From Thermoplasmata archaeon (GTDB lineage Archaea > Thermoplasmatota > E2 > DHVEG-1), in contig JADBLO010000072.1 of NCBI GenBank assembly GCA_014894395.1, positions 130,351 to 194,350 of the forward strand: a DNA stretch of 64,000 nt. The letters run 5' to 3'. Each line of letters begins with the position of its first letter. Position 1 is the stretch's first letter. Position numbers and translations under genes: made by a program. Shown here in pieces: positions 1,629-60,980 of the stretch. The notes under the pieces are model-generated. The model had not been told where the DNA came from. It searched no databases and worked only from the letters and a program-made list of their open reading frames with translations.

Positions 1629-2069
1629 ATGGATTCTCTGATTATGTGTATCGGCAATCGAGACGGCGGCGATGATGGGATCGGGCCGCATATTGCTGAT
1701 ACCCTAAAGATTGATTCCCTTGATTTTGTGGTTCTTGATTGCGGAACGACACCGGAGAATTACACAGCGGTCGTCAAGCGACATAAACCAAAAACACTCG
1801 TTCTTATCGATGCTGCAGATATGGGTCTTGCTGCCGGGGATATACGAATAATTCCTAAAGAAAAACTCGGAAGCATGCATATCAGTACACATGGAATACC
1901 GCTCTCAATTTTAATCCAGTATTTGGAGAAAGAAGTAGAACATGTTATCTTTATAGGGATTCAACCACAAACGATGTTTGGGGAGATAAGTAAACCTGTA
2001 AAAAAGAGCGCAGAACAGCTTATCGAACTCCTGAAAAAGAAGAAAATAGATCAGATAAAAATCCTCTAG
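1629..2069 (+). CDS. Hydrogenase maturation endopeptidase (HycI/HyaD/FrhD family)
   Basis: 146 aa. N-terminal GNRDGGDDGIGPHIADTL matches the GNxxxxDDGxG metal-binding signature of hydrogenase maturation proteases. Size fits. Confidence 0.6.
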   Translation: MDSLIMCIGNRDGGDDGIGPHIADTLKIDSLDFVVLDCGTTPENYTAVVKRHKPKTLVLIDAADMGLAAGDIRIIPKEKLGSMHISTHGIPLSILIQYLEKEVEHVIFIGIQPQTMFGEISKPVKKSAEQLIELLKKKKIDQIKIL

Positions 2070-2998
2070 TAAGGATATTTTTTTCCAAGAGCCTCTGTGG
2101 ATGAAAGCGCAGCGATTGCCCCCTCAGCACACGCTGTGATCACTTGTCGTAATCCACCAGTGATGTCACCAGCGGCATAGACACCTTTGATGTTTGTCCG
2201 TTGCTGTCTATCCACTACGATATACCCGTGATCATTGAGAGTGAGACCGAGTATTTTAGCTAATTCATTTTGTGGTGTATCACCTACAGAAATGAAGACA
2301 CCATCCACCTCAAGAACTGATTTCTTTTGACTTGCAACATCGGTCAGATGAACACTTTCAACAGTATCTTTCCCTGCGATTCTATCTGCTTCTTTGTTCA
2401 ATAAGATTTGGATGTGTTTCTCTCGTGCCTCGGTTTCATATATTTTTTCTGCCCGGAGTTGCTCTCGTCGATGCACCAGCGTAACGTTTTTACACCCTAT
2501 TTGTTTGAGAAAGATTGCTTCCATGAGAGCGGTGTTTCCACCGCCCATTACCGCAACATGTTTCCCTTTGAAGAAAAACCCATCACAGGTGGCGCAATAC
2601 GAAACACCTTTTCCCAGAAATTCTTTTTCCCCAGGGATATCAAGTGTTTTGTGTTCGGTTCCGGTGCAAAGCAGAATCGCACCAACACTGTAGTTTGCTT
2701 TCGTTGTCACAAGCGTGAACGTGTCAGTGGAACGATGGATTGTTTTTACTTCCTCGTAGAGGTGCATCGTGACGTATTTTTCTGCATGGCGTTTCATTTT
2801 CTCCATGAGTTCTGCACCGGGGATTGATTCGAAGCCGGCGTAATTTTCTATTTTTGGCGAGAGTACTGCTCGTCCGCCGCCGTCACCTCTATCAAAAAGA
2901 GCGGTTTTAATACCGGACCGTGCCGCGTAGATTCCTGCGGAGTACCCAGCAGGGCCCGCGCCAATGATTGCTAATTCATAGTCCATATGGGTCCTCAT
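2066..2998 (-). CDS. trxB: Thioredoxin-disulfide reductase
   Basis: 310 aa. FAD-binding AIIGAGPAGYSAG near the N-terminus, redox-active CATCDG motif, second GGGNTA NADPH-binding motif. Confidence 0.8.
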   Translation of the reverse strand: MRTHMDYELAIIGAGPAGYSAGIYAARSGIKTALFDRGDGGGRAVLSPKIENYAGFESIPGAELMEKMKRHAEKYVTMHLYEEVKTIHRSTDTFTLVTTKANYSVGAILLCTGTEHKTLDIPGEKEFLGKGVSYCATCDGFFFKGKHVAVMGGGNTALMEAIFLKQIGCKNVTLVHRREQLRAEKIYETEAREKHIQILLNKEADRIAGKDTVESVHLTDVASQKKSVLEVDGVFISVGDTPQNELAKILGLTLNDHGYIVVDRQQRTNIKGVYAAGDITGGLRQVITACAEGAIAALSSTEALGKKYPY

Positions 2999-3021: not shown

Positions 3022-3714
3022 TTAAATGCCTCTCACTGCACAGCGTTTGAAAAATGGTTGTATAGCGGTTAACGTCTCTTCGAGGTAGTTTTTTGGATAC
3101 GGAATAGCATGTTCAAGTGTTGATGAAATCAAAGGAGAAAGGGGTTTGAACTGTTGAAGATAATACAGGTCTGCTCCTTTCAACCATTTTGCAATCTCAA
3201 CGATATCCTCTTTTTTCAACAGATCTGGAACGAACGTGGTCTTAAACTCATACGCAGGTGCCTTATTCTTGATAAGATCGATTGATGCTTCAATCTTCGA
3301 CGTATCGACATCGACACCAGCAAGCTCACGGTATCTCCTCTTCGGTGCCTTCACGTCCATCGCGACGTAATCAACAAGCTGTTGTCCCAGCAATTCACCA
3401 AGTTTTTCTGGAAACGCACCGTTCGTATCAACCTTTACTAAAAATCTCTGTTTTTTTATTTTTTCAATGAAATCAACGATATCTTCCTGTAACAGTGGCT
3501 CTCCACCAGAGATAACCACCCCTTCAAGTTGTCCTTTTCGTTTAGAAAGAAAAGAGAGGATTTCATCCTCAGGGAATAACTCTGCGGTCCCCAGCGCAAG
3601 ATTCTTGTTGTAACAGAACGGGCAGCGGAAATTACATCCGCTAGCCCAGACTATCGCACTAATCCGATCTGGATAGTCAAGCAACGATGTTTTCTGAAAG
3701 CCACCTATTTTCAT
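3022..3714 (-). CDS. nrdG: Anaerobic ribonucleotide reductase activating protein (radical SAM)
   Basis: 230 aa. CNFRCPFC radical-SAM CxxxCxxC motif near the N-terminus. Overlaps the nrdD stop by 4 nt. Confidence 0.8.
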   Translation of the reverse strand: MKIGGFQKTSLLDYPDRISAIVWASGCNFRCPFCYNKNLALGTAELFPEDEILSFLSKRKGQLEGVVISGGEPLLQEDIVDFIEKIKKQRFLVKVDTNGAFPEKLGELLGQQLVDYVAMDVKAPKRRYRELAGVDVDTSKIEASIDLIKNKAPAYEFKTTFVPDLLKKEDIVEIAKWLKGADLYYLQQFKPLSPLISSTLEHAIPYPKNYLEETLTAIQPFFKRCAVRGI

Positions 3715-6700
3715 TGTGTAACAAGAACCTTTTCTCTCATATCAAATGTTTTTCGATCACGGAACTCCTGCTGTTTTCCTTTATTCCATTGGTTCACCGG
3801 TCGGATATATCCTACGACCCGAGAGTAGATTTCGCATTCCGTGGTTTTTTGTTCAGCATGACAGGTCGGGCAGTACTGATGTTCACCAGCGATGTACCCA
3901 TGGTCAGGGCAGACGCTAAACGTCGGTGTGATGGTATAGTACGGGAGCGCGTAGTTCTCTGCAACCTTTCGAACTAAGTTCTTGATAGCAGTCGGCGAGG
4001 GTTCTTCCTCACCAAGGAAGATATGCAGTACCGTGCCACCAGTGTATTTTGTCTGTAAGGAATCCTGCAGATCAAGGGCTTCAAAGACATCCGTTGTAAA
4101 TCCAACAGGCAGTTGCGTGGAGTTGGTGTAGTATGGTTCAACGTCCCGCCCACGGTTTTGAGTGTAGATCTCCTGGTTGTATGTTCGAATGTCAGGGTAT
4201 TGTTTCTTATCGATTCGTGCGAGTCGATAGCTCGTCCCTTCTCCCGGTGTTGCCTCCAGGTTAAAGATGTTTTCGGTTTCTTCCTGGAAATCCGCGATAC
4301 GCGTGCGCATGTAATCAAGGACTTTCTCTGCGAATGCCTTACCCTCGGGATCGGCAATACTCTTATTCATGAAGTTCAGCAGAGCATCGTTCATGCCGAT
4401 GAGACCAATGGTAGAGAAATGGTTCTTCCAGTATTCCCCAAAGGTTTTCTTCACATCGGAGAGATAGAACCGTGAGTAGGGATGCAATCCACTATCGGTG
4501 AGATTTTCGATGAGATCTCGTTTGATTTCCAAGCTTTGTTTTGCAAGCACCATAAGTGCATCCAGTCGTTCAAAGAAATCAGTGTCATCTTTTGCAAGAT
4601 ACCCTATCCGCGGCATATTGAGGGTGACGACCCCTATCGATCCGGTTTTGGGATTCGCACCAAAAAGACCGCCACCTCGTTTTCTGAGTTCACGATTATC
4701 AAGTCTCAATCGACAATTGTGTGTTAGAATACCTGTTGTACCGACAGTGAACACAGGTGTTCCATTTTTTACCTCAAAACAATATGCGGCACTGTTGGAT
4801 ATCGGTGCGATGTCCTTTATCTTTACCCAGAGTTTATTGTTCTTCTTAAACCATATATCACCATAATTTTTTCTGTTTAATTGATATATTAATACTGCGT
4901 AATTAGGTTCTTTTCCCAGTCTTCCTTCGCGTGCATCTTCATAGATACTTGTCGTGGTTCCAAGCGTTGCAGTGAGCATGTTTAACGTTTCAACCATCTG
5001 AGGTGAAGAGGTATAAATTCTATTTCTGTTTCCGCCATCGGTGTCATAATGACCAGTAAGTGCCCCTTTTCTAAACTCCTTGCTCACGGTAAAAATCCTT
5101 GCTGTATATTTTTTATCTCTTTTTATTCCCTCGACATAATCTTTACATAAACCAACTGCTGCCTTTGAATGAACCTTGACTGTTGTTAATTTTGTTTTTT
5201 TATCAGCAGTAATTGTACAATGTGCACCGAAATACTGCTCAGCAATTTTAATGAGTTTTGTGATCACCTTTTTTTTGTAGTGGTTTTCTAAAGAAAACAC
5301 CACTGATGTATCACCATCAAAGGATCCATCTCCTGCATACGCTCCAACAAAATAACCTAAGTCTTTTGTCCCTCCAGATCCCTCATATTCCTGTAAAGAG
5401 TACGGTAGATACATTCCGAGTTTGAGGTCTTGACCTTTTACAACGCTTTCTTTTTTTTCGGAAGAATCATTCATTATATAGTTTAAATGATGGGATGACA
5501 TTTTAATTTCATGACCATTTTCTAATTTGATTTTTATCATTTGTTGGTCGTTCCATTTGTTAAATTTTCCTTTGATAAATTTCCCAGCACTATAGATTTC
5601 ATATTCCCCTTGGTTACTGTTACCTTCATAGATATTTCTAATCATTGAATATTCAACGATTCTTCCTCTTGAAGATTTAATTAGAACTTTTTCATCTCCA
5701 GCTAAAGGGCACATGGATCGTGCATCATCCGGCTTCATGTCGCTGTTAATAAAATTACTGAAGTACGGGATCCCGTATTTCGCGGTCATGTCCCAGAGTG
5801 GTGTCAGTCCATCGTTGTTCCAGTTGAAATCTTTTGTGATGTTATAGGTTGGAATGGGAAATGTAAATGGCCTCCCCTTAGAATCACCGTCATGCATGTT
5901 CTCTGCGAATGCACGGTTGATCATCTCCATCTCACCGGTGTATTCACTATAATTATTGTCAGTAAGATTTCCGCCGATAATCGCTGGTTCCTCAGCAAGG
6001 TATCCAGGTATGGTTAAATCCATTGTACAGTTACTGAAAGGCGATTGGAAGCCAACACGTGTTGGTACATTCATATTGAACAAAAATTTTTGCATCTCTT
6101 GCTTTACACTATCGTACTGGAGTTGGTCTTTTGCAATGAATGGTGCTAATAAAGTATCAAAATTCGAAAGAGCCTGTGCTCCTGCGGCTTCACCCTGTAA
6201 AGTGTACAGATAGTTCACGATATGCATAAGTGCAGTGCTGAAATGTTTCGCTGGTTTGCTTTCGATTTTCCCGGAGACGCCTTTGAAACCGAGGAGTAAT
6301 AAATCTTTTAAGTCCCACCCCACGCAATATGGTCCGAGTGTCCCAAGGTCGTGCAGGTGGTAGTCTCCCTTGGTGTGCGCATCTCCTATCTCAGGCGGAT
6401 AAATCTTATTGAGCCAGTAATGAGAAATAATGCTTTCAGTGGCGTACACATTCAATCCTTGCAAAGAGTATGCCATGTTGCTATTCTCATTGACCTTCCA
6501 GTCCAACATGCTGAGGTAGTCATCAACCACATCAATGTCTTTCAGAAGTCCCCCGATTTCTCGCATGTCCTGGTGTTGTTTCCTGTAGAGGATGAATGCT
6601 TTCGCGGTTTTCGCATGACCATCCTCTATGATGACTTTTTCTACGACGTCCTGGACTTGTTCAACTGTAGGGATTTCACTGCGTTTCAACTCTTTTTCTA

Positions 6701-6848
6701 AGATGGTGATAACTTTGTCTGTCAGCTCTGCTGCTTTCTTGTAGTCTTTTCCACCGACTGCTTGTGCTGCTTTCCAGATTGCTTCTGTGATTCTTACTGG
6801 GTTGAAGTCAACAATTTTCCCGTCTCGTTTCTTAATCTTCCGTATCAT
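3711..6848 (-). CDS. nrdD: Anaerobic (class III) ribonucleoside-triphosphate reductase NrdD, with an in-frame intein
   Basis: 1045 aa. N-terminal ATP-cone (VRITEAIWKAA...). C-terminal glycyl radical motif RVVGYIRPV and a Zn-ribbon CPDHG...CPTC. Removing the 332-aa intein leaves ~713 aa, typical for NrdD. Confidence 0.85.
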   Translation of the reverse strand: MIRKIKKRDGKIVDFNPVRITEAIWKAAQAVGGKDYKKAAELTDKVITILEKELKRSEIPTVEQVQDVVEKVIIEDGHAKTAKAFILYRKQHQDMREIGGLLKDIDVVDDYLSMLDWKVNENSNMAYSLQGLNVYATESIISHYWLNKIYPPEIGDAHTKGDYHLHDLGTLGPYCVGWDLKDLLLLGFKGVSGKIESKPAKHFSTALMHIVNYLYTLQGEAAGAQALSNFDTLLAPFIAKDQLQYDSVKQEMQKFLFNMNVPTRVGFQSPFSNCTMDLTIPGYLAEEPAIIGGNLTDNNYSEYTGEMEMINRAFAENMHDGDSKGRPFTFPIPTYNITKDFNWNNDGLTPLWDMTAKYGIPYFSNFINSDMKPDDARSMCPLAGDEKVLIKSSRGRIVEYSMIRNIYEGNSNQGEYEIYSAGKFIKGKFNKWNDQQMIKIKLENGHEIKMSSHHLNYIMNDSSEKKESVVKGQDLKLGMYLPYSLQEYEGSGGTKDLGYFVGAYAGDGSFDGDTSVVFSLENHYKKKVITKLIKIAEQYFGAHCTITADKKTKLTTVKVHSKAAVGLCKDYVEGIKRDKKYTARIFTVSKEFRKGALTGHYDTDGGNRNRIYTSSPQMVETLNMLTATLGTTTSIYEDAREGRLGKEPNYAVLIYQLNRKNYGDIWFKKNNKLWVKIKDIAPISNSAAYCFEVKNGTPVFTVGTTGILTHNCRLRLDNRELRKRGGGLFGANPKTGSIGVVTLNMPRIGYLAKDDTDFFERLDALMVLAKQSLEIKRDLIENLTDSGLHPYSRFYLSDVKKTFGEYWKNHFSTIGLIGMNDALLNFMNKSIADPEGKAFAEKVLDYMRTRIADFQEETENIFNLEATPGEGTSYRLARIDKKQYPDIRTYNQEIYTQNRGRDVEPYYTNSTQLPVGFTTDVFEALDLQDSLQTKYTGGTVLHIFLGEEEPSPTAIKNLVRKVAENYALPYYTITPTFSVCPDHGYIAGEHQYCPTCHAEQKTTECEIYSRVVGYIRPVNQWNKGKQQEFRDRKTFDMREKVLVTQ
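4716..5711 (-). mobile_element. Intein (332 aa) with LAGLIDADG homing-endonuclease domain inside NrdD
   Basis: Starts with Cys (SM|CPLAGDEKV...) and ends ...GILTHN followed by the extein Cys (CRLRL). LAGLIDADG-like blocks LGYFVGAYAGDGSF and LTGHYDTDGG. Boundaries were counted codon by codon. Confidence 0.75.
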
Positions 6849-6862
6849 GTGGTTCTTTCCTC

Positions 6863-7309
6863 CTATTTCTCTATTAAATTTTTAACCTCTTTTTCGAAGC
6901 TGGTGACGTCAGTGAACTGACGATAGACCGATGCGAACCTGATGTATGCGACATGATCGACTTCTTTTAATGCATCCATGACGTATTCTCCTATGAGGGA
7001 GGTTTCGATTTCTTCTTTTCCGACTCGTCTGATTTTTTCTTCAATTCCATCGATCATTTCTTCGATTTTTTCATGGGTGATTGGACGTTTCTCAAGTGCT
7101 TTTTCCATTCCGTTTCTGATTTTACAGCGGTCGAATCGTTCTCGTCTGCCGTCTTTTTTTATGACGAAAAGTGGTGCCATTTCGATGTATTCGTAGGTCG
7201 TGAATCGCTTGTTGCAGCTGAGGCATTCTCGTCGTCTGCGTATTGATCCTCCCGTATCGCGAGAGTCGGTAACCTTCGTGTCAATATGGTTGCAATAGGG
7301 ACAGTTCAT
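6863..7309 (-). CDS. nrdR: Transcriptional repressor NrdR (Zn-ribbon plus ATP-cone)
   Basis: 148 aa. [19 protein letters not shown]...[17 protein letters not shown] is the canonical NrdR N-terminus. Immediately upstream of nrdD. Confidence 0.8.
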
Positions 7310-43260: not shown

Positions 43261-46200
43261 ATGGCTGAGATTAACAAGAAAAACGATCAACCACGTGATA
43301 TTAACGAGGAAATGAAACGTGCTTTTATTGATTATTCCATGAGTGTGATTATGAGCAGGGCCCTCCCGGACATTCGTGATGGGTTAAAACCGGTTCATCG
43401 AAGAATTTTACATGCAATGAATGAAATGGGAATGGGGTATGAGAAATCGTATAAGAAATCTGCTCGAGTGGTCGGAGAGTGCTTTGTTAAAGATACATTG
43501 GTTCTTACAGAACAAGGACTCATACCGATACAAGATGTAAAAAAGGGAGATGCAGTCTATACTCAAGATGGCTTAGAGAATGTCAAAGAGCTATACATAA
43601 TGCCCAAGCGAGATCTTGTTAAAATTATCTTAGAAAATGGACTAGATGCTATTGTTACAAAATCACAAAAATTTAAGGTACTTACACCAGATTGGAAATT
43701 TATCTGGAAAGAAGTTAGGGAGCTTACCGAAAATGATTACATTGTTATAAAATCCGATTATCCTGACATTAAAAATCAGGTAAGAATTGGAGAAAAATTA
43801 TTAAATAAAAATATCGCGTATCTCCTTGGTCAATTAATTTCCGATGGATGGGTTGAAAAAAGCCAGAGACTCGGCTTTTATTCGAATAGTTTATCTATAA
43901 TAAAAAGAATTGAAGGAATTTTACAAGAAGAATTTGAATATTTTCCTACTGTTGAACAAATAGAATACGAATATGAAACTTCTAATGGGTTAGTTTTGCT
44001 CAATAAGGGTTTCCAAATACGTATCAATAGTAAAACAATAAATCAATATTTAATCCAAGAGTATCATCTCTTGGGTATTAAAGCTGAAAATAAAAAAATA
44101 CCTCAACAAATTTTCCAAAGTCCTAAGGATGTCATTTTTTCATTTATCAGCGGTTTGATTGATGGCGATGGTAGCATTCATAAAGAAAGGAATGTCATTC
44201 ATTATGGTACTGTTTCAAAAGAACTGGCAAATCAACTGATAATACTCCTGCATCATTTCGATATCCATGGAGTTAAATATCTTGAAAAAACTAAAACAGG
44301 TGGTATTGTCTGTGGGAGAAATATTGCACGTACACTTCCATTTTTTTCTTTAGAGTTTAGAGGTGAATGTGCACAAAAATTAGGGATCGAGTTGAATCTC
44401 GCTGAAGAAGAAAAATTACAAAAATTAAAAGAATTATTAAGCTATAAAGTAGGAAAATCAAATTTCGAAATTTTACCATATGGCAGTAAAAAAATCTTTA
44501 GCGAATTAAGCGATTGCCATTTAGGTGGTGGATGGTATCAAGATATAGAGGGAAAAAAAATTAGATCGGGAATAAAATATCCCTCGGGGACAAAGATACG
44601 ATACTCTAAAGAATTGCATGATAAACCCTTACGAATTTCTCAAATAATCGAATGGGGGATACAAAACAAAATAAAAAAAATCGGTTCTGATTTATATGAA
44701 TTTATCGAGAGAATTATCACTGAAAAAATATACTTTTTAAAAGTGAGTGGTATTGAGGAAGGCGGAAGAGAAGAAACTTATGATCTTCAGGTCGAAAACA
44801 AACACGAATTTATTGCCAATGGCATGCTTGCACATAATTGTCTTGGTAAGTATCATCCTCATGGAGATCAAGCTGTATATGATTCATTGGTACGAATGGC
44901 TCAGGATTTCTCGTTGCGTTATCCGTTAATCGCTGGTCAAGGTAATTTTGGTTCTGTCGATGGGGATTCCCAGGCTGCGATGCGATACACAGAAGTAAAA
45001 ATGGCCAAGATCACAAAGCTTATGCTGCAGGATATCGAGAAAGAAACAGTTGAATGGCGTGACAATTTTGATGGCACCTTAAAAGAACCTGAGGTTCTTC
45101 CAGCGATTTTACCGAATCTTCTGGTGAACGGATCGTCTGGTATCGCGGTTGGTATGGCCACGAACATGGCGCCTCATAACATCTGTGAGGTGATCGATGG
45201 TACTATCCGGATGATTGACGCTCCTGAGACATCGACTGCGGAGTTAATGGAGATTATTAAAGGACCTGATTTTCCGACAGGCGGTATTATCTTTGGTCGT
45301 GGTGGTATCCTTTCTGCGTATTCCACGGGACGCGGTTCACTTGTTGTCCGTGCGAAAACCTCCATTGAAGAAGGTGAACAAAAAAATAAAATCATTGTTC
45401 ATGAGCTGCCGTACCAGGTGAATAAATCTGTTCTTCTGCAAACAATCGCTGAGCTTGTCAAAGAGAAGAAAATTGAGGGCATCTCTGATCTTCGCGATGA
45501 AAGTGATCGAAAAGGCATGCGCATTGTCATTGAGTTGAAACGTGACGCTATCGATGATGTTGTATTGAATCAATTGTTTGAACATACTGAGTTACAATCT
45601 TCATTTGGTGTGCTGAATCTTGCGATTGTCAAAGGCGAGCCAAAGGTTCTGATGCTGAAAGAAATTCTTCAGCATTACATTGAATATAGAATAGAAATTA
45701 TTACGCGACGTACCACCTATGATCTGAAGAAAGCGAAAGAAAAAATACACATCCTTGAAGGCCTCATGATTGCGCTGCGGAACATCGATGAAGTCATTAA
45801 GATCATCCGACAGAGCAAAGAAGTTGAGGAAGCCAAAAATCGACTGATAACGCGCTTTAAACTTTCTGAGATTCAAGCAAAAGCCATCCTTGACATGAGG
45901 CTGCAGAAACTCACTGGTATGGAAATCGAGGCTGTTGAAAAAGACTACAAAGAAACCAAACAACTGATTGAACAACTCGAAGCCATCCTTGCAGACAAGC
46001 AAAAGATCCTTGCTGAAATCAAACGAGAGTTGCTCGAGATTAAAGAAAAATTTGGGGACGCGCGACGCACCCAGATCGTGGAAGGAGACGCAGGCATCGA
46101 TATAGAAGACCTCATACCTGTCCAGGAAGTCGTTGTAACCATTACAAAAGACGGTTATATTAAACGTATTCCGACGGAAACCTATCATACACAACATCGT

Positions 46201-47487
46201 GGCGGGAAAGGACTTATTGGTGTACGGCCAAAACAAGAAGATTTCGTAGTTGATTCGTTTATCACCAGCACCCATGATTATCTGATGTTTTTCACGAATC
46301 ACGGGCGGGTTTACTGGATGAAAGGCTATAAGATCCCTGAAGGAGACCGCCATGCAAAAGGAAAAGCCATCATCAACTTACTCCCACGACTTGAAGAAGG
46401 AGAAAAAATTGAAACCGCGGTTCCTATCCATGAGTTTGATGATAAACATTTCTTGATTTTTGCAACAAAACAAGGCACGATTAAAAAGACGGTGTTGTCT
46501 GCGTATGGTAATATCCGGGTGAATGGGATCATTGCCATAAAACTTGAGGAAGGCGATGAGCTCATGGGCGTGGAACTCTCCGATGGAACCAAGACCGTGA
46601 TGATCGCAACCGCTGGTGGTCAGGCCTGCAGGTTTAATGAAAAGGAACTCAGGCCGATGGGACGGGCAACCAGGGGCGTGATTGGTATCCGGCTTAAGAA
46701 CAAGAATGATGCGGTGGTCGCTTTGACCGTGGTGGATATCACAGGTTCGTTGTTTACGATTACAGAAAACGGTTTTGGGAAACGATCCCCGATTGATGAA
46801 TACCGGATGACTCATCGGGGAAGCAAAGGAGTACGAACAATTGTTACCAATGAGCGAAACGGAAACGTGGTGTTCGTTAGTCAGGTCACTGATGAAAACG
46901 AGCTGATTATTACAACTGAGCATGGAATGACCGTACGAATACCGGTACGGGACATCAGGGAACAAGGTCGGAACACGATGGGTGTGCGAATCATGCGTTT
47001 GAACGAGGGCGACAAGGTTGTTTCTGTCACTATTACAAAAATGTTGTCCGAAAACGGAGTGAAATGCGAGGTTGCATCAGCAGAACAGATGCCAATCGGT
47101 ATGATTGCTGAACAGCCCCAGAAAGAAGAACCAGCAGCACCAGTTGAAGAGGCTGAGGAATTACCAAAAGAAGTCAAAGAATCCTTTCCGGTTGTTAAAC
47201 CAGCGGAACCCGAAAAAACAGTAACGAAGCCTGAGGAATCAAGAAAAATCGAGAAGCAAAAGAAAGAAAAAGTAAAGATAGTACCGCTAATAAAAGGCAA
47301 AGGAAAACCACTGAAAATAAAAAAAGCAGCTCCAGCGAAAAAGAAACCAGTTCAAAAGAAGAAGGAAAAACCAGTGAAAAAACTAAAAGCAGTAAAACCA
47401 AAGAAGGTTAAAACAAAACCGGTGAAAAAACTAAAGAAACCTCAGAAGAAAAAAATCTCTGAAAAGAAAAAACCAAAGCGAAAATGA
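43261..47487 (+). CDS. gyrA: DNA gyrase subunit A, containing an intein and a C-terminal K/P-rich tail
   Basis: 1408 aa. GKYHPHGD, AAMRYTE (active-site Tyr). C-terminal beta-pinwheel repeats. 453-aa in-frame insertion. Last ~125 aa are Lys/Pro/Ala-rich. Confidence 0.9.
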   Translation: MAEINKKNDQPRDINEEMKRAFIDYSMSVIMSRALPDIRDGLKPVHRRILHAMNEMGMGYEKSYKKSARVVGECFVKDTLVLTEQGLIPIQDVKKGDAVYTQDGLENVKELYIMPKRDLVKIILENGLDAIVTKSQKFKVLTPDWKFIWKEVRELTENDYIVIKSDYPDIKNQVRIGEKLLNKNIAYLLGQLISDGWVEKSQRLGFYSNSLSIIKRIEGILQEEFEYFPTVEQIEYEYETSNGLVLLNKGFQIRINSKTINQYLIQEYHLLGIKAENKKIPQQIFQSPKDVIFSFISGLIDGDGSIHKERNVIHYGTVSKELANQLIILLHHFDIHGVKYLEKTKTGGIVCGRNIARTLPFFSLEFRGECAQKLGIELNLAEEEKLQKLKELLSYKVGKSNFEILPYGSKKIFSELSDCHLGGGWYQDIEGKKIRSGIKYPSGTKIRYSKELHDKPLRISQIIEWGIQNKIKKIGSDLYEFIERIITEKIYFLKVSGIEEGGREETYDLQVENKHEFIANGMLAHNCLGKYHPHGDQAVYDSLVRMAQDFSLRYPLIAGQGNFGSVDGDSQAAMRYTEVKMAKITKLMLQDIEKETVEWRDNFDGTLKEPEVLPAILPNLLVNGSSGIAVGMATNMAPHNICEVIDGTIRMIDAPETSTAELMEIIKGPDFPTGGIIFGRGGILSAYSTGRGSLVVRAKTSIEEGEQKNKIIVHELPYQVNKSVLLQTIAELVKEKKIEGISDLRDESDRKGMRIVIELKRDAIDDVVLNQLFEHTELQSSFGVLNLAIVKGEPKVLMLKEILQHYIEYRIEIITRRTTYDLKKAKEKIHILEGLMIALRNIDEVIKIIRQSKEVEEAKNRLITRFKLSEIQAKAILDMRLQKLTGMEIEAVEKDYKETKQLIEQLEAILADKQKILAEIKRELLEIKEKFGDARRTQIVEGDAGIDIEDLIPVQEVVVTITKDGYIKRIPTETYHTQHRGGKGLIGVRPKQEDFVVDSFITSTHDYLMFFTNHGRVYWMKGYKIPEGDRHAKGKAIINLLPRLEEGEKIETAVPIHEFDDKHFLIFATKQGTIKKTVLSAYGNIRVNGIIAIKLEEGDELMGVELSDGTKTVMIATAGGQACRFNEKELRPMGRATRGVIGIRLKNKNDAVVALTVVDITGSLFTITENGFGKRSPIDEYRMTHRGSKGVRTIVTNERNGNVVFVSQVTDENELIITTEHGMTVRIPVRDIREQGRNTMGVRIMRLNEGDKVVSVTITKMLSENGVKCEVASAEQMPIGMIAEQPQKEEPAAPVEEAEELPKEVKESFPVVKPAEPEKTVTKPEESRKIEKQKKEKVKIVPLIKGKGKPLKIKKAAPAKKKPVQKKKEKPVKKLKAVKPKKVKTKPVKKLKKPQKKKISEKKKPKRK
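43480..44838 (+). mobile_element. Intein (453 aa) with LAGLIDADG homing endonuclease inside GyrA
   Basis: ARVVGE|CFVKDTLVL ... FIANGMLAHN|CLGKYHPHGD. Starts with Cys, ends His-Asn, +1 Cys. LAGLIDADG blocks YLLGQLISDGW and FISGLIDGDGS. Extein junction aligns with E. coli ARVVGDVIGKYHPHGD. Confidence 0.8.
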
Positions 47488-56810: not shown

Positions 56811-59800
56811 TTATGGTGACTGTTCTCGTGTCAGGAGAATATTCAGGTCTTTTGGTGTATCACCAATAGTGAGTGTGATTTGTCCGGTGCCGGTATATGT
56901 TATATTTTGACCGCTTTCATTGACAAGTTCTTCAACACTTGCGTTATATGAGCCTGGCGCCAGTTCGGTGGTGTAATTTCCATTGCTGTCGGTTATCACG
57001 CTTTTTGCTACTGCAGTATTTTCCGCAATTCGTAAATCCTCTGAGAAGAGAATGGTCATGTTTGCTTTCCCTACACCATTGTATTTTGTAGTTCCGCTGA
57101 CAGTAACAGATACTTTGGTAGCGGCGATGTTGTAAGATGCAGTTCCTTCTCCGACGGAAACAGTTAGTTTGTCTGTAAAGGTGTATACCGTGGTTGCTGC
57201 CTCTGTTTTTTTGACGGTAACATTGTATGTTCCTGGTGTGAGTTTAGCTACGTAGAGTCCCTGAGCATCAGATGTCGCAGAAATTTGTTTTGTTGCGGTG
57301 TTGTTTTGTATTGATTTGTCAGGGGCGAATGTAACTGGGATGCTGCCAAGATTGACTGTAGCATAAGTTGTATATCCGCTGACAATGACTGGAGCATAGG
57401 TAAGGGAGATGTTAACCCAGGATGTTTTGTTTGCGGTAAGGGTAACTGTTTGTTCGGTGACGTAGTCAAGGTTTCCTGTGCTGGTATTTTGTTTTGTCGC
57501 ATTCAAGGTGTATACTCCCGGAATTAATGAGGGAAAAGAATAGGTTCCTGCGGTACCTGTAGTTATAGTGGTGACTGATTTTTGGGTGTCATCGAGTTTG
57601 GTGTAGGTGAGTTGAATTTGCACGTCGCTTGCTTCCTCACCAGTAGTGTATTTCTTATCAACATTACTATCGGTATAGACAACTCCTTTTACTTCAGCTA
57701 ATTTTGGTTTTGAGATGTTGTACGAGTTATTGCCAGGTTCAATATTGATAGGTTCTCTGTTAAGGAGGGTGTATTCATTTTCAACTGCAGAGATATTGTA
57801 TTTACTTGGGTATAAATTACTGAAAACGTAGTGTCCTTGTAGGTCTGTTGTCACCGGTTGGACCGGCCTTCCGAAATAATAATCGTTTAATTCGATGGTA
57901 ATCCCAGATAATGGGGTATCACTGGCTTGTTCGTAGGAACCGTTGTTGTTGTTATCCTGATAGACAAAACCTTCCAGGGTTGAAAGGCTCACATTGATGT
58001 TGAAGTTACGTGAATATTTCGAACCGTTGAGACGCATGGCTTCTGCGTCCGTCACTGGAGAATATAACATATTATTGGTGTTGTTAAACGTGATTTTTTT
58101 CAGGAGCACTTCGTTGGCGTAGGTGAAAAGCAGAGTGATATTGCCACCAGGTGCAAGGAGGTTGAAACTACCGTTTGCATCAGTCGCCATGTTATCGTGT
58201 GGGAACCCGTAGTCATCAAGGATTGCGACCGTTACATAGGGAAGTGTGGTGTTGTTGCAGCTGATGGAACCGTTGAAGAACGCGCCTTCATAGTACTTCG
58301 CGATGACCACTGCGCTTCTGCCTTGCCCGTAGTAGGGGTAGGGTGAAACATAGACCGGGATGAAATGCCTCATAGCATAGCAGGGGATTTGTTGATTTGG
58401 TGTTTGATAGTATCCACTCTGATCTTGTTGCGGGGGGGTACCAATGTAGGTTCGATAGAACATGGTGTTGAAATAATCTTGTTTGTTAATGGTTGTAGTT
58501 CCTGTGACGGCGATACGGTTTCGCTGCTCCTGGAGCATATCGTTGAGTTCTTTTGCCGTCCATTGACCATCAGGGCCCTGGGATCCATCTGTATTTACCG
58601 AATAACCCGTGTATATGACCTGGATGAAATCGTCCTCGGGGTTGTGGAACTGTTTTCCTGCGGTTCGAAGCGCGGTTAAAACGTTGCTTTTATCGCCAAG
58701 GAACGCGAAGATGTTGAAAATCTGCTCGTCATATCCTTCCACCCCGTAGTACCGAATGCTGTAGCCAGTGGCTTGCTGGATATCATGGTATAACCATGTG
58801 ATTTGTTCATCGGTTAAGGTATCGTTTAAAAGTTTTTCGATATCGTGATAATAAGCGTTTTCAGGATATTGCGCTCCCACGAGCAGGGTCTTGCTCAGAT
58901 TAACGTCATATTCTGCTCCGATTGCCTTCTTCTGCGAGGGAGAAAGCGCGGGATTAAGCATCCAGGATGTAATTTTGGTTGTATTGTTATTCCCAAGATG
59001 TTTCTGAAGTGCAGTAATGACTGAATCAGAGAAGGCTATGTCGTCGTTATCTTTTCGATTCCCTTCTAATAATCGGACAATCCAGACTGCGATCCCTTGT
59101 TTTTCACTTTTTGCGGTATGGAAATTAGCTGCAGGTGAAATTCCGTCTTGGAAGTTATCAGCGACGGTCGGATGCGCTCCAACCGCAACTTCGTAGAACC
59201 CGTAGTCCCACCAGGAGATAAAACCAGGTCGTTTTGATGGATCCGCGATGTTTGTGTCTTGTTTGTTTAGCCAAGCATAGGCGGCGACCCAGTATTGCTC
59301 CTTGTAAGAGCTAGAGCCGAACGCAGAGGAATGATTTTCTCCGAAGAAATCATATTTCAAATTACTCGTACCGTTTTTTGATGCAGCCGATGGTACCGCC
59401 GCATCGAGTGCGAGGTACCCATTAGGGATGAGAATAAGGAGAGCGACAAAGAGAACCCCGAAAACGTGGTAGATTCTCACGCCTTTTCGTATGCCTCGGA
59501 TACCACCGCCTGCGTTCCTTATGTTTCGTGCCATTTGTTTGTAGTCGATCTTACTAATCAAAAACCAAATAATCCATCCCGCAAGGAGGGCGATGAGGGG
59601 TACCATGTCGTTAAGGAAACGACCAGCGGTTGATGTCAGCCAGATGTTGATGACGAATAATGAAAGGATGAAGAGGTAGTCACGTCGTCCTTTCTGTTTC
59701 ACATATTGGTAGATAAGAAACGCAAAGCCAGCCCAGGCAAGCCAGTACAATACAGGGCCGTACGACATCACGGTTCTGCTCATATTATATGTTCCTGCCT

Positions 59801-60980
59801 CTGCGATCGTAAGGGATACCTTTGACCCATAAATCCCAGCACCATAGATGAGTTCTGCGATTTTCCCTAACGGCGAGAATATTGTCAATGTTTTAGGATA
59901 TGCATAGACGACGTAGAGAAATGCTGTTACGGCTCCTGCAATAACACCAATCAATGGGAGTGAAACGACCCAGGGGATTTTCTTCCGTTTGAAAAGAATA
60001 CAGAGGCCACCGAAGATTAAAACCCCTATTGCTAGATAGAAAGGAAGGTTTAAGATGACACCTCGTGCGGCGGTGACCGGCCATGAAACAAGAACTCCAG
60101 TGAATAATGCAAGGAAGATGTTGATAACAAATCGTTCTTCGAGCTTATTCATGAAAATATCTATTAAAAGTTGTACAACTGCATAAACGGTGATAATTGT
60201 GTAGAGGTATTGTGCTTCTACCCAAACCATAGAAAGAGCTGCAAGCGGGATTCCTGCGAGGAGCGCGTAGAGAATTGAGCGTTTCATATCTTTTTCCTTG
60301 ATGCTTTTAATTAAAAAGAGGAAGGTGAGGAAATATAAGAGCAGGTTGAACGAGTCGTGGTCAAACAGACCATATGCGGAACCATGTCCTGAGCTAATAT
60401 GAATAGGTATGATCGCGATGAGGAGCGCGGCGACGAGCCCGGCTTTCTTCCCGAATAATATTTTCCCGATGAAGTACACGGGGAAGACGAGCAAAGCACC
60501 AAATAACGCAGGGATAAACTCCATTGCGTACCCGATTGCATCTGCTTCACTCATAAAAGGGACAAGGAGTTTACTGAAACCGATCGCAGACATGACGAGC
60601 AACGGAGCACGACCTCCTGATTTCCCAAATGGATAGGCGAGCAGGGGATCGTTGGAAGAGAAAAAGGGAAAACGCCCGGTCTGTACTGTATTATCAACAA
60701 GCCGCATGTTATAGTACGGGTCAGGACCAGATAAATAGAACGTATCGGTCATGGTTGTTCCTGATGGGTTCATATTCACGTTTGATACGATGTTGAAATA
60801 GGAGTTCATGAATAAAACTAAGAAGAAAATTGCTATCAATGATACTCCAATCCACCAGTTTTTCTTGAATCGAAATCGCTTTCGTTCCGGGGCGTTTGCT
60901 ACGCCTACGGGTTGTGGAGTTGGAGCTGTTACTGATTGCGTTGGCGTTTTAAATTGTGCTCGTTTCCGCATACGTTTCAC
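56811..60980 (-). CDS. aglB: Oligosaccharyltransferase AglB (STT3 family) with ~500-aa C-terminal extension of four beta-sandwich (CarboxypepD_reg/Cna-B-like) domains
   Basis: 1389 aa. 13-TM N-terminal domain with GPDPYY acidic loop. Hallmark WWDYGFY motif. C-terminus has four repeats of ...TD..G.Y.F..L.PG.Y.V... Confidence 0.85.
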   Translation of the reverse strand: MKRMRKRAQFKTPTQSVTAPTPQPVGVANAPERKRFRFKKNWWIGVSLIAIFFLVLFMNSYFNIVSNVNMNPSGTTMTDTFYLSGPDPYYNMRLVDNTVQTGRFPFFSSNDPLLAYPFGKSGGRAPLLVMSAIGFSKLLVPFMSEADAIGYAMEFIPALFGALLVFPVYFIGKILFGKKAGLVAALLIAIIPIHISSGHGSAYGLFDHDSFNLLLYFLTFLFLIKSIKEKDMKRSILYALLAGIPLAALSMVWVEAQYLYTIITVYAVVQLLIDIFMNKLEERFVINIFLALFTGVLVSWPVTAARGVILNLPFYLAIGVLIFGGLCILFKRKKIPWVVSLPLIGVIAGAVTAFLYVVYAYPKTLTIFSPLGKIAELIYGAGIYGSKVSLTIAEAGTYNMSRTVMSYGPVLYWLAWAGFAFLIYQYVKQKGRRDYLFILSLFVINIWLTSTAGRFLNDMVPLIALLAGWIIWFLISKIDYKQMARNIRNAGGGIRGIRKGVRIYHVFGVLFVALLILIPNGYLALDAAVPSAASKNGTSNLKYDFFGENHSSAFGSSSYKEQYWVAAYAWLNKQDTNIADPSKRPGFISWWDYGFYEVAVGAHPTVADNFQDGISPAANFHTAKSEKQGIAVWIVRLLEGNRKDNDDIAFSDSVITALQKHLGNNNTTKITSWMLNPALSPSQKKAIGAEYDVNLSKTLLVGAQYPENAYYHDIEKLLNDTLTDEQITWLYHDIQQATGYSIRYYGVEGYDEQIFNIFAFLGDKSNVLTALRTAGKQFHNPEDDFIQVIYTGYSVNTDGSQGPDGQWTAKELNDMLQEQRNRIAVTGTTTINKQDYFNTMFYRTYIGTPPQQDQSGYYQTPNQQIPCYAMRHFIPVYVSPYPYYGQGRSAVVIAKYYEGAFFNGSISCNNTTLPYVTVAILDDYGFPHDNMATDANGSFNLLAPGGNITLLFTYANEVLLKKITFNNTNNMLYSPVTDAEAMRLNGSKYSRNFNINVSLSTLEGFVYQDNNNNGSYEQASDTPLSGITIELNDYYFGRPVQPVTTDLQGHYVFSNLYPSKYNISAVENEYTLLNREPINIEPGNNSYNISKPKLAEVKGVVYTDSNVDKKYTTGEEASDVQIQLTYTKLDDTQKSVTTITTGTAGTYSFPSLIPGVYTLNATKQNTSTGNLDYVTEQTVTLTANKTSWVNISLTYAPVIVSGYTTYATVNLGSIPVTFAPDKSIQNNTATKQISATSDAQGLYVAKLTPGTYNVTVKKTEAATTVYTFTDKLTVSVGEGTASYNIAATKVSVTVSGTTKYNGVGKANMTILFSEDLRIAENTAVAKSVITDSNGNYTTELAPGSYNASVEELVNESGQNITYTGTGQITLTIGDTPKDLNILLTREQSP

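Follow-up and report, generated by a model that had tools for sequence, protein, structure and literature searches.

The locus and its divided nrdD gene

The stretch of DNA analyzed here, 64,000 nucleotides from a Thermoplasmata archaeon (contig JADBLO010000072.1; hereafter, the window), contains nrdD, the gene for the class III ribonucleotide reductase (RNR) NrdD, interrupted by an in-frame insertion. The insert is an intein that consists of a HINT splicing domain and a two-motif LAGLIDADG homing endonuclease and is predicted to be active in splicing. An intein in NrdD is ordinary as such; the splicing variant that this one represents is unusual. The precursor open reading frame (ORF) is divided as follows.

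3711..6848, minus strand: nrdD precursor ORF, 1045 amino acids plus stop, with ATP-cone, NrdD barrel, intein and glycyl-radical C-terminus
5709..6848, minus strand: N-extein, amino acids 1-380, ending ...DDARSMC (uninterrupted homologues read SMCCRL)
5709..5711, minus strand: codon TGC of Cys380, the -1 residue, first Cys of the MCCR motif and last codon of the N-extein
4716..5708, minus strand: the intein as inserted element, 331 codons (993 nucleotides), P381...N711 (PLAGDEKV...GILTHN), delimited from homologue comparison, model and folds
3711..4715, minus strand: C-extein, amino acids 712-1045 plus stop, starting CRLRLDNR in the translation
3861..3911, minus strand: Zn-ribbon cysteines in the C-extein
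3798..3821, minus strand: glycyl-radical motif RVVGY in the C-extein

The initial annotation of this DNA, made from the sequence alone, had recognized the host as class III NrdD with a normal glycyl-radical C-terminus, and both descriptions hold. The Pfam family NRDD matches the ORF in two pieces that flank the insert (631 bits, 2e-189), NCBIfam PRK08270 matches it with 1036 bits, an N-terminal ATP-cone is detected (Pfam, 1.5e-19), and the ORF resembles the NrdD structures of T. maritima, P. copri and T4. Profile scores above the cut-off are accompanied by the glycyl-radical motif, the Zn-ribbon cysteines and a neighbouring gene for the activase NrdG.

Identity and architecture of the intein

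The insert has a GC content of 35%, compared with 45% in the exteins, and carries the following conserved elements (the slash here and below marks a splice junction or insertion point).

5670..5708, minus strand: block A, PLAGDEKVLIKSS, with Pro at A:1 in place of the Cys or Ser of standard inteins (intein_Nterm profile)
5475..5516, minus strand: block B, GHEIKMSSHHLNYI, with Ser at B:7, His454 at B:10 (5487..5489) and Asn, not Trp, at B:12
4842..5381, minus strand: LAGLIDADG homing endonuclease domain, approximate limits (LAGLIDADG_3; helix-strand pattern of the model; I-DmoI, PI-SceI and PI-PfuI folds)
5319..5360, minus strand: LAGLIDADG motif 1, LGYFVGAYAGDGSF (...YAGDGS), with Asp507
5028..5075, minus strand: LAGLIDADG motif 2, FRKGALTGHYDTDGGN (...YDTDGG), with Asp604
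4743..4787, minus strand: block F, AYCFEVKNGTPVFTV, with Cys690 at F:4 (4779..4781) instead of the Asp of standard inteins
4713..4733, minus strand: block G, GILTHN/C, with Thr709 at G:5, His710, Asn711 and the +1 residue Cys712 (4713..4715) (intein_Cterm match)

Matches to the intein_Nterm (24.8/28.5 bits, cut-off 24.5), intein_Cterm (16.1 bits, cut-off 15.6) and LAGLIDADG_3 (23.2 bits, cut-off 22.5) profiles lie at or above their cut-offs. An AlphaFold2 model of the intein, built with 25 family sequences in the alignment and with Cys380 taken as residue 1, reached a mean predicted local distance difference test score of 90.1 and a predicted template modelling (TM) score of 0.89. The best Foldseek matches of this model in the Protein Data Bank (PDB) are the bifunctional inteins TliVMA and PhoVMA (7qsu, 7qst), PI-SceI (1vde), PI-PfuI (1dq3, a ribonucleotide reductase intein) and PI-TkoII (2cw7), at E values of 4e-19 to 6e-11, TM scores of 0.65-0.78 and a probability of 1.00. 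All share with the window's intein the layout of a HINT domain and a pseudo-dimeric LAGLIDADG enzyme; they are 11-17% identical to it, belong to canonical Cys1 class 1 and occupy other hosts and sites. The central domain of the model also matches the monomeric LAGLIDADG enzymes I-DmoI and I-Tsp061I (Foldseek, probability 1.00), and the endonuclease is complete: its two LAGLIDADG helices, both with an acidic residue at the end, are part of an alpha-beta-beta-alpha-beta-beta-alpha fold. Searches of the intein against PDB chains, as a single sequence and as a family profile, gave no meaningful match at E <= 1; the sole sequence match, to a phycobilisome linker (E 0.28), was dismissed as chance. 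A 64-residue extein segment likewise matched no PDB sequence.

An in-frame insertion at a conserved host site that is missing from close homologues, together with blocks A, B, F and G, His B:10, the C-terminal His-Asn, Cys +1 and the HINT fold, defines the insert as an intein. The LAGLIDADG intein of the initial annotation also withstands the two objections that the annotation itself had anticipated: Hint-domain similarity is found, through intein_Nterm and intein_Cterm, and the insertion, rather than being a loop present in all homologues, is missing from most close ones. A pseudogene or an assembly artefact was ruled out, given that more than 50 independent sequences have the same architecture and that the exteins are under purifying selection. 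From this selection on the exteins and the splice residues, we infer that the protein actually splices.

The intein starts at proline, after the first cysteine of the MCCR motif

The initial annotation had drawn an insertion of 332 amino acids, CPLAGDEKV...GILTHN, with Cys at its N-terminal boundary. The string is real, spans residues 380-711 and maps exactly to 4716..5711, but the inserted element is 331 amino acids long and its boundary lies one codon further on. The homologue search returned many 714-residue NrdDs about 92% identical to the exteins, many 1045-residue forms and forms with inteins elsewhere. In this set, SMCCRL is the reading in each of the 67 uninterrupted homologues, which are 714 amino acids long, and SMCRL occurs in none of them; the 52 interrupted homologues all read SMC/P...THN/CRL. 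Since 1045 = 714 + 331, the inserted element comprises the 993 nucleotides coding for P381...N711, and the exteins total 714 amino acids instead of the approximately 713 first given.

Two distinct syntenic loci, each on two contigs, agree with this reading. The nrdD gene of one (L068/L069), with an extein identity of 95-97%, has an intein at another site only, and that of the other (L070/L071) is intein-free; all four read ...ARSMCCRLRL..., with the TGY TGY codons uninterrupted. When the window's protein is spliced in the P381-N711 register, the resulting peptide, DMKPDDARSMCCRLRLDNRELR, is identical to that of the syntenic loci. Within the intein, positions 2-79 of the intein_Nterm profile align to residues 382-454, which puts position 2 on Leu382 and position 1 on Pro381. 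The usual block A pattern is C-L-A-G-D-T-x-V; PLAGDEKVL fits it with Pro for Cys, in agreement with an intein start at Pro381. In a sister subfamily, which includes the annotated NrdD of Clostridium phage c-st, the same column holds the standard Cys1, after the same extein Cys (C/CFDG...THN/CRL). Judged from these comparisons, the first Cys of the string CPLAGDEKV is a host residue, extein residue -1, and the standard Cys1 intein implied by the earlier boundary gives way to one with Pro at position 1.

The insertion point of the family is not absolutely fixed: in two relatives (P0170 and P0229) the junction reads ...THN/CCRL, with the intein one codon upstream, ahead of both cysteines.

The site had been described as a conserved core segment, and it can now be placed exactly: the intein separates the two cysteines of the MCCR motif. 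The first of them is the additional Cys that SCCR/MCCR-type NrdDs have, and the second is the thiyl-radical Cys of the enzyme (Cys712), which is at the same time the +1 nucleophile position of the intein. The motif 328-SCCR-331 of T. maritima NrdD has been equated with 288-MGCR-291 of T4, with an MCCR variant noted, and the T. maritima C329A and C330A mutants are each inactive (PMC4493059). The SCCR/MCCR-type enzymes form a subclass with thioredoxin as the demonstrated reductant (PMC4493059; PMC4390871). The SMC/C site corresponds to C329/C330 of T. maritima, and Cys712 to C290 of T4. This assignment was set by residue counting in the HMMER alignment, where C329 and C330 precede R331 in chain 4coi, and by what PMC4493059 states of the motif; near the motif, the full extein as aligned by phmmer to 4coi and 8p23 is out of register. 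Adjacent cysteines before Arg place the host among the CC-motif NrdDs, and SMCCRL is restored only if P381-N711 is excised. Excision of exactly P...N would yield ...SMC-CRL..., as in every uninterrupted homologue, and the unspliced precursor, with its finger-loop motif split, cannot work as a reductase.

The boundary drawn initially amounts to a standard class 1 intein in which Cys380 would be residue 1, the N-to-S acyl shift would take place at Met379-Cys380, and excision of the 332-residue C...N segment would leave a mature ...SM-CRL... protein of 713 amino acids with a single Cys. This arrangement is not without appeal: Cys directly precedes Pro in 99 of 101 family members, the string conforms to generic intein rules (Cys...HN/Cys), and NrdDs of the T4 and E. 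coli types work with one Cys in the motif (MGCR). We nevertheless consider it quite improbable. The single Cys that it predicts is seen in none of the uninterrupted homologues, the length difference is 331 and not 332 residues, and at the DNA level the comparison displays an insertion between two Cys codons. The profile and the register of block A put Pro at A:1, and the Cys1 sister subfamily keeps its extein Cys (C/C...N/C). The CC-type T. maritima enzyme depends on both cysteines and, as described below, the B:7 Thr/Ser that activates the first step of class 1 splicing is degenerate in the subfamily with Pro at position 1 (Pro1). The case has a practical side: finders or readers keyed to Cys...His-Asn/Cys would set the boundary off by one residue and predict a mature reductase that lacks one essential cysteine.

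NrdD relatives of the same lineage have inteins at no fewer than five other sites (P0011, P0013, P0021-23, P0040, P0111, P0116 and P0120): immediately before Cys175, the conserved reducing-face Cys (T4 C79, T. maritima C125), and after extein residues 268, 328/329, 404 and 540. Some of these genes contain two inteins and encode up to 1595 amino acids. In P0040, with an extein identity of 95-97% to the window, the intein at the Cys175 site is the only one.

Residue pattern of the family and the predicted splicing chemistry

The residue pattern was scored in 101 full-length family representatives. Position 1 is Pro in 46 and Cys in 54 of them, and the extein Cys at -1 is present in 99. His B:10 and Thr G:5 are invariant (101/101 each), and the C-terminal His-Asn is missing from a single sequence (100/101). 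Cys occupies F:4 in 94 representatives, including every Pro1 member (46/46) and 48 of the 54 Cys1 members; the exceptions, five Asp and one Ser, all occur with Cys1. With kinship ignored, the association between the F:4 residue and position 1 has p = 0.03. B:12 is N, Q, H, F or C and never Trp (0/101). The B:7 hydroxyl is gone in 23 of 46 Pro1 members compared with 1 of 54 Cys1 members (p = 6e-9, kinship again ignored); the substitutes in the Pro1 subfamily are G, D, A and L, and the window's intein has Ser. The Pro1 sequences cluster in one large group of a neighbour-joining tree; a small Cys1 group lies inside it and holds four of the five members with Asp at F:4.

With Pro at position 1, the textbook N-to-S acyl shift by Cys1 is unavailable. 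In class 3 inteins the catalytic triad consists of Cys F:4, His B:10 and Thr G:5 (PMC7664689), and Cys F:4 attacks the N-terminal junction to give an intermediate branched at block F (PMC2807308, PMC4031507). The window's intein has all three residues, which favours chemistry of the class 3 type. Cys690 would attack the Cys380-Pro381 bond, aided by His B:10 and Thr G:5, and form a thioester branch; the N-extein would then be transferred to the +1 Cys712, cyclization of Asn711 would release the intein, and an S-to-N shift would create the Cys380-Cys712 peptide bond. Our preferred reading of the locus is thus a mobile intein, P381-N711, in the MCCR motif, with predicted splicing through the block-F Cys in the manner of class 3 and probable homing into intein-less nrdD; we give this reading a probability of roughly 0.6.

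Comparison with the three recognized classes delineates what is shared and what is not. From class 1 the intein departs in having Pro381 instead of Cys, Ser or Thr at A:1, Cys690 at F:4, where Asp is usual, and Ser at B:7 in place of the Thr that aids the N-to-S shift. Class 3 inteins (mycobacteriophage Bethlehem DnaB, M. smegmatis DnaBi1, M. chimaera DnaB1; PMC2807308, PMC6195587, PMC7664689) likewise have no position-1 nucleophile, and the class prototype starts with Pro, as does the window's intein. They also have Cys F:4, Thr G:5, His B:10 and the C-terminal His-Asn, and the block-F thioester branch proposed for the window's intein is the same as theirs. Of the class 3 WCT triplet, Cys F:4 (Cys690) and Thr G:5 (Thr709) are present in the window's intein, whereas Trp B:12 is replaced by Asn (Gln in relatives). 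The class 3 hosts are helicases or terminases with Ser or Thr at +1, in contrast to NrdD and Cys here. No solved PDB chain, which would include solved class 3 inteins, is matched by sequence. Every one of the nearest relatives is an NrdD intein, with Cys1 in about half, and the occurrence of the closest Cys1 relatives at the same NrdD site suggests an origin separate from class 3. The intein in NrdD of Clostridium phage c-st / D-1873, where a putative intein has been noted (PMC3653736), belongs to the same family, with a full-length identity of 30% (E 4e-23). This phage intein is inserted at the same point between the (S/M)CCR cysteines and has the Cys F:4, the THN/C end and a LAGLIDADG domain, but starts with the standard Cys1 (ASC/CFDG...), where the window's intein has Pro.

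Several observations weigh against splicing of the class 3 type. The mechanism is read from residue patterns, and the class 3 Trp at B:12, which is needed for N-terminal cleavage in the class prototype (PMC2807308), is missing, with Asn in its place. Cys occupies +1, a position that is Ser or Thr in nearly all class 3 inteins. Cys F:4 is also found in most Cys1 relatives and so may have another role, and its association with position 1 is modest before phylogenetic correction. Finally, the nearest relatives are Cys1 NrdD inteins and not members of the phage/helicase clade.

A competing mechanism with the same boundaries, P381-N711, is class 2-like: the Cys380-Pro381 amide would be the direct target of the +1 Cys712, as in KlbA inteins, and the block-F Cys would be auxiliary or would serve a redox function only. 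Like all class 2 inteins, the window's has Cys at +1 (PMC4031507), and it lacks both an N-terminal nucleophile and the B:12 Trp. However, class 2 inteins need Asp F:4 to activate Cys +1, have Ala1 and Ser G:6, and are orthologues within one host, KlbA (PMC4031507); the window's intein has Cys F:4, Pro1 and His G:6 and resides in NrdD, so that the missing N-terminal nucleophile and Cys +1 are the features in common, the latter being the only one among the residues and orthology that define the class. Moreover, the presence of Cys F:4 throughout the Pro1 subfamily, with Asp variants confined to Cys1 members, points to a role as nucleophile. On this evidence a class 2-like route appears unlikely, though it is the stronger of the competing mechanisms.

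It could also be asked whether splicing has been lost, so that the insertion is decaying or domesticated and this copy of nrdD is inactive or works with the insert in place. The non-canonical residues at position 1 and F:4 could be read as decay, and a free-standing homologue that lacks the His-Asn exists elsewhere (P0130, see below). The signatures of selection speak against such a loss: the ratio of nonsynonymous to synonymous substitution rates (dN/dS) of the exteins is 0.02-0.06 where measurable, which is in three comparisons with unsaturated synonymous sites (L001, L003 and L060), and in the other comparisons extein dN does not exceed intein dN. About 100 clusters share His B:10, Thr-His-Asn and the +1 Cys without variation, and the length of the insert is fixed at 328-333 amino acids. 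The insert divides the catalytic finger-loop motif, and nrdG and nrdR are intact beside the gene. Taken together, this makes loss of splicing extremely improbable.

The homing endonuclease and mobility of the intein

Both endonuclease motifs are well conserved in the family, with Asp507 kept in 84 and Asp604 in 92 of the 101 representatives. Across ten related loci, dN/dS of the endonuclease domain is 0.05-0.12 (Nei-Gojobori method), which indicates that the endonuclease is maintained by selection. Syntenic relatives with an extein identity of 92-97% carry intein-less alleles, and this absence from closely related genomes suggests that the intein is still mobile.

Sequence similarity around the insertion fits the same picture. 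Among identical residues, identical codons are commoner inside the intein than in its flanks (0.74-0.89 against about 0.5-0.6 for L060). The 33 nucleotides downstream of the insertion are near-identical to the window's in close intein-bearing relatives and differ from it at many synonymous positions in intein-less alleles. Such flank similarity, combined with presence/absence polymorphism, fits homing with co-conversion: the released intein would act as a site-specific endonuclease that cuts intein-less nrdD at TGY/TGY, and repair would copy the intein in and carry flanking sequence along. As a counterpoint to recent transfer, AT-rich codon usage may partly explain the low synonymous divergence of the intein. 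From selection and distribution we infer the endonuclease role and homing, with both activity and target predicted.

A free-standing ORF of 335 amino acids, P0130 (L072 4001..5008, L073 3229..4236), is 42% identical to the intein over the full length and looks like an intein-derived free-standing homing endonuclease. Both of its LAGLIDADG motifs are intact, and the splice residues are gone: position 1 is Leu, F:4 is Thr, and the end reads TLI, not THN. The ORF is found immediately upstream of an nrdD that contains an intein, on a phage-like contig that encodes ThyX and many small ORFs.

A separate observation concerns the nrdD gene itself, which is a mosaic in the comparison of the window with L001. 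Nucleotide identity is 0.74-0.80 at N-extein residues ~200-330 (about 5860..6250) and reaches 0.91-0.97 in the intein and in the greater part of the C-extein, which suggests recombination inside nrdD between close lineages.

Size and phyletic distribution of the family

A word-indexed homologue search with the intein alone returned 12 proteins, mostly fragments, and an exhaustive search of 1.84 billion cluster representatives yielded 292 clusters (E <= 1e-3); among the best 150 of the 292, nearly all are in NrdD at the same junction. In species-representative genomes, the Pro1 form is 56-94% identical to the window's intein, except at one locus with 36%. It is found in Thermoplasmatota, with the closest relative (94%) in a metagenome-assembled genome (MAG) from Lac Pavin sediment, and in Nanoarchaeota, Woesearchaeota, Aenigmatarchaeota, Micrarchaeota, Iainarchaeum, Bathyarchaeia and Methanomicrobia. 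Among bacteria, it occurs in many Patescibacteria and in Anaerolineae, Gammaproteobacteria and one Bacteroidota MAG, and a fragment from Acidobacteriota is 76% identical to the intein. Inteins can be 66-72% identical where the adjoining, highly conserved extein flanks are 58-67% identical.

Genes surrounding nrdD and other features of the window

The nrdD gene belongs to a cluster with the order nrdR-nrdD-nrdG-thioredoxin-reductase-like.

6863..7309, minus strand: nrdR-like regulator (Zn ribbon and ATP-cone), upstream of nrdD
3022..3714, minus strand: nrdG, coding for the radical SAM activase; overlaps the stop codon of nrdD, in operon context
2066..2998, minus strand: thioredoxin-reductase-like flavoprotein, downstream of nrdG (ORF translation; the orthologues in L068 and L070 match Pyr_redox_2)
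43480..44838, plus strand: GyrA intein of about 453 amino acids (VGE/CFVKDT...GMLAHN/CLGKYHPHGD), within the gyrA ORF 43261..47487
56811..60980, minus strand: ORF of 1389 amino acids, with an STT3/AglB-type oligosaccharyltransferase N-terminal region

In L068 and L070, nrdG is placed likewise relative to nrdD. The thioredoxin-reductase-like neighbour fits an NrdD of the thioredoxin-dependent CC-motif type. NrdR is usually treated as a bacterial regulator; here, its gene lies directly upstream of nrdD in a Thermoplasmatota-like archaeon, and this order is kept in the syntenic relatives (L068/L070).

The initial annotation had also reported a second intein, in GyrA, and considered two inteins in 64 kb notable. 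The GyrA intein is real; their co-occurrence is unremarkable for an archaeal window. With Cys1, Asp F:4 (TYDLQVE), His-Asn, Cys +1 and a LAGLIDADG domain, the GyrA intein belongs to canonical class 1, a textbook pattern unlike that of the NrdD intein. The 1389-residue ORF combines its oligosaccharyltransferase region with several CarboxypepD_reg, SdrD_B and prealbumin-like repeats in an unusually long fusion.

Implications

Inteins in RNR genes have long been known, including putative ones in phage nrdD (PMC3653736, PMC2795772). Full-text literature searches returned no description of Pro1 or class 3 inteins in NrdD or other RNRs, which is weak evidence of novelty given that subscription papers were not covered. 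Nucleophile-less inteins have been divided into two groups, each arisen once: the KlbA inteins (class 2) and the phage/helicase WCT clade (class 3) (PMC4031507). The intein described here, judged by its residue pattern, would fall outside the definitions of classes 1, 2 and 3: it is a nucleophile-less Pro1 intein with Cys F:4 and Thr G:5 but no Trp, it resides in a non-helicase host, and it is nested within a Cys1 family. We tentatively raise the possibility, which we consider less likely than not, that the Pro1 subfamily represents an independent, undescribed origin of splicing without an N-terminal nucleophile, inside a Cys1 family that already had Cys F:4 and Thr G:5. If so, it would bridge class 1 and class 3 chemistry in nature, with no need of the class 3 Trp.

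It has been argued from structural work that no stepwise evolutionary path leads from class 1 to class 3 (PMC7664689). The family provides a direct test of this claim, because at one site it is split about evenly between Cys1 and Pro1 forms, and the Cys1 half already possesses Cys F:4 and Thr G:5; it also supplies many natural sequences with which class 1-to-class 3 evolution can be examined.

The element is widespread in anaerobic uncultivated archaea and Patescibacteria and, lying between two catalytic cysteines, it would have to be spliced out before NrdD can supply deoxyribonucleoside triphosphates for DNA synthesis. At the splice center of this oxygen-sensitive enzyme, three thiols come together (Cys -1, Cys F:4 and Cys +1), and splicing could therefore be redox-gated; in that case, NrdD would mature under reducing conditions only.

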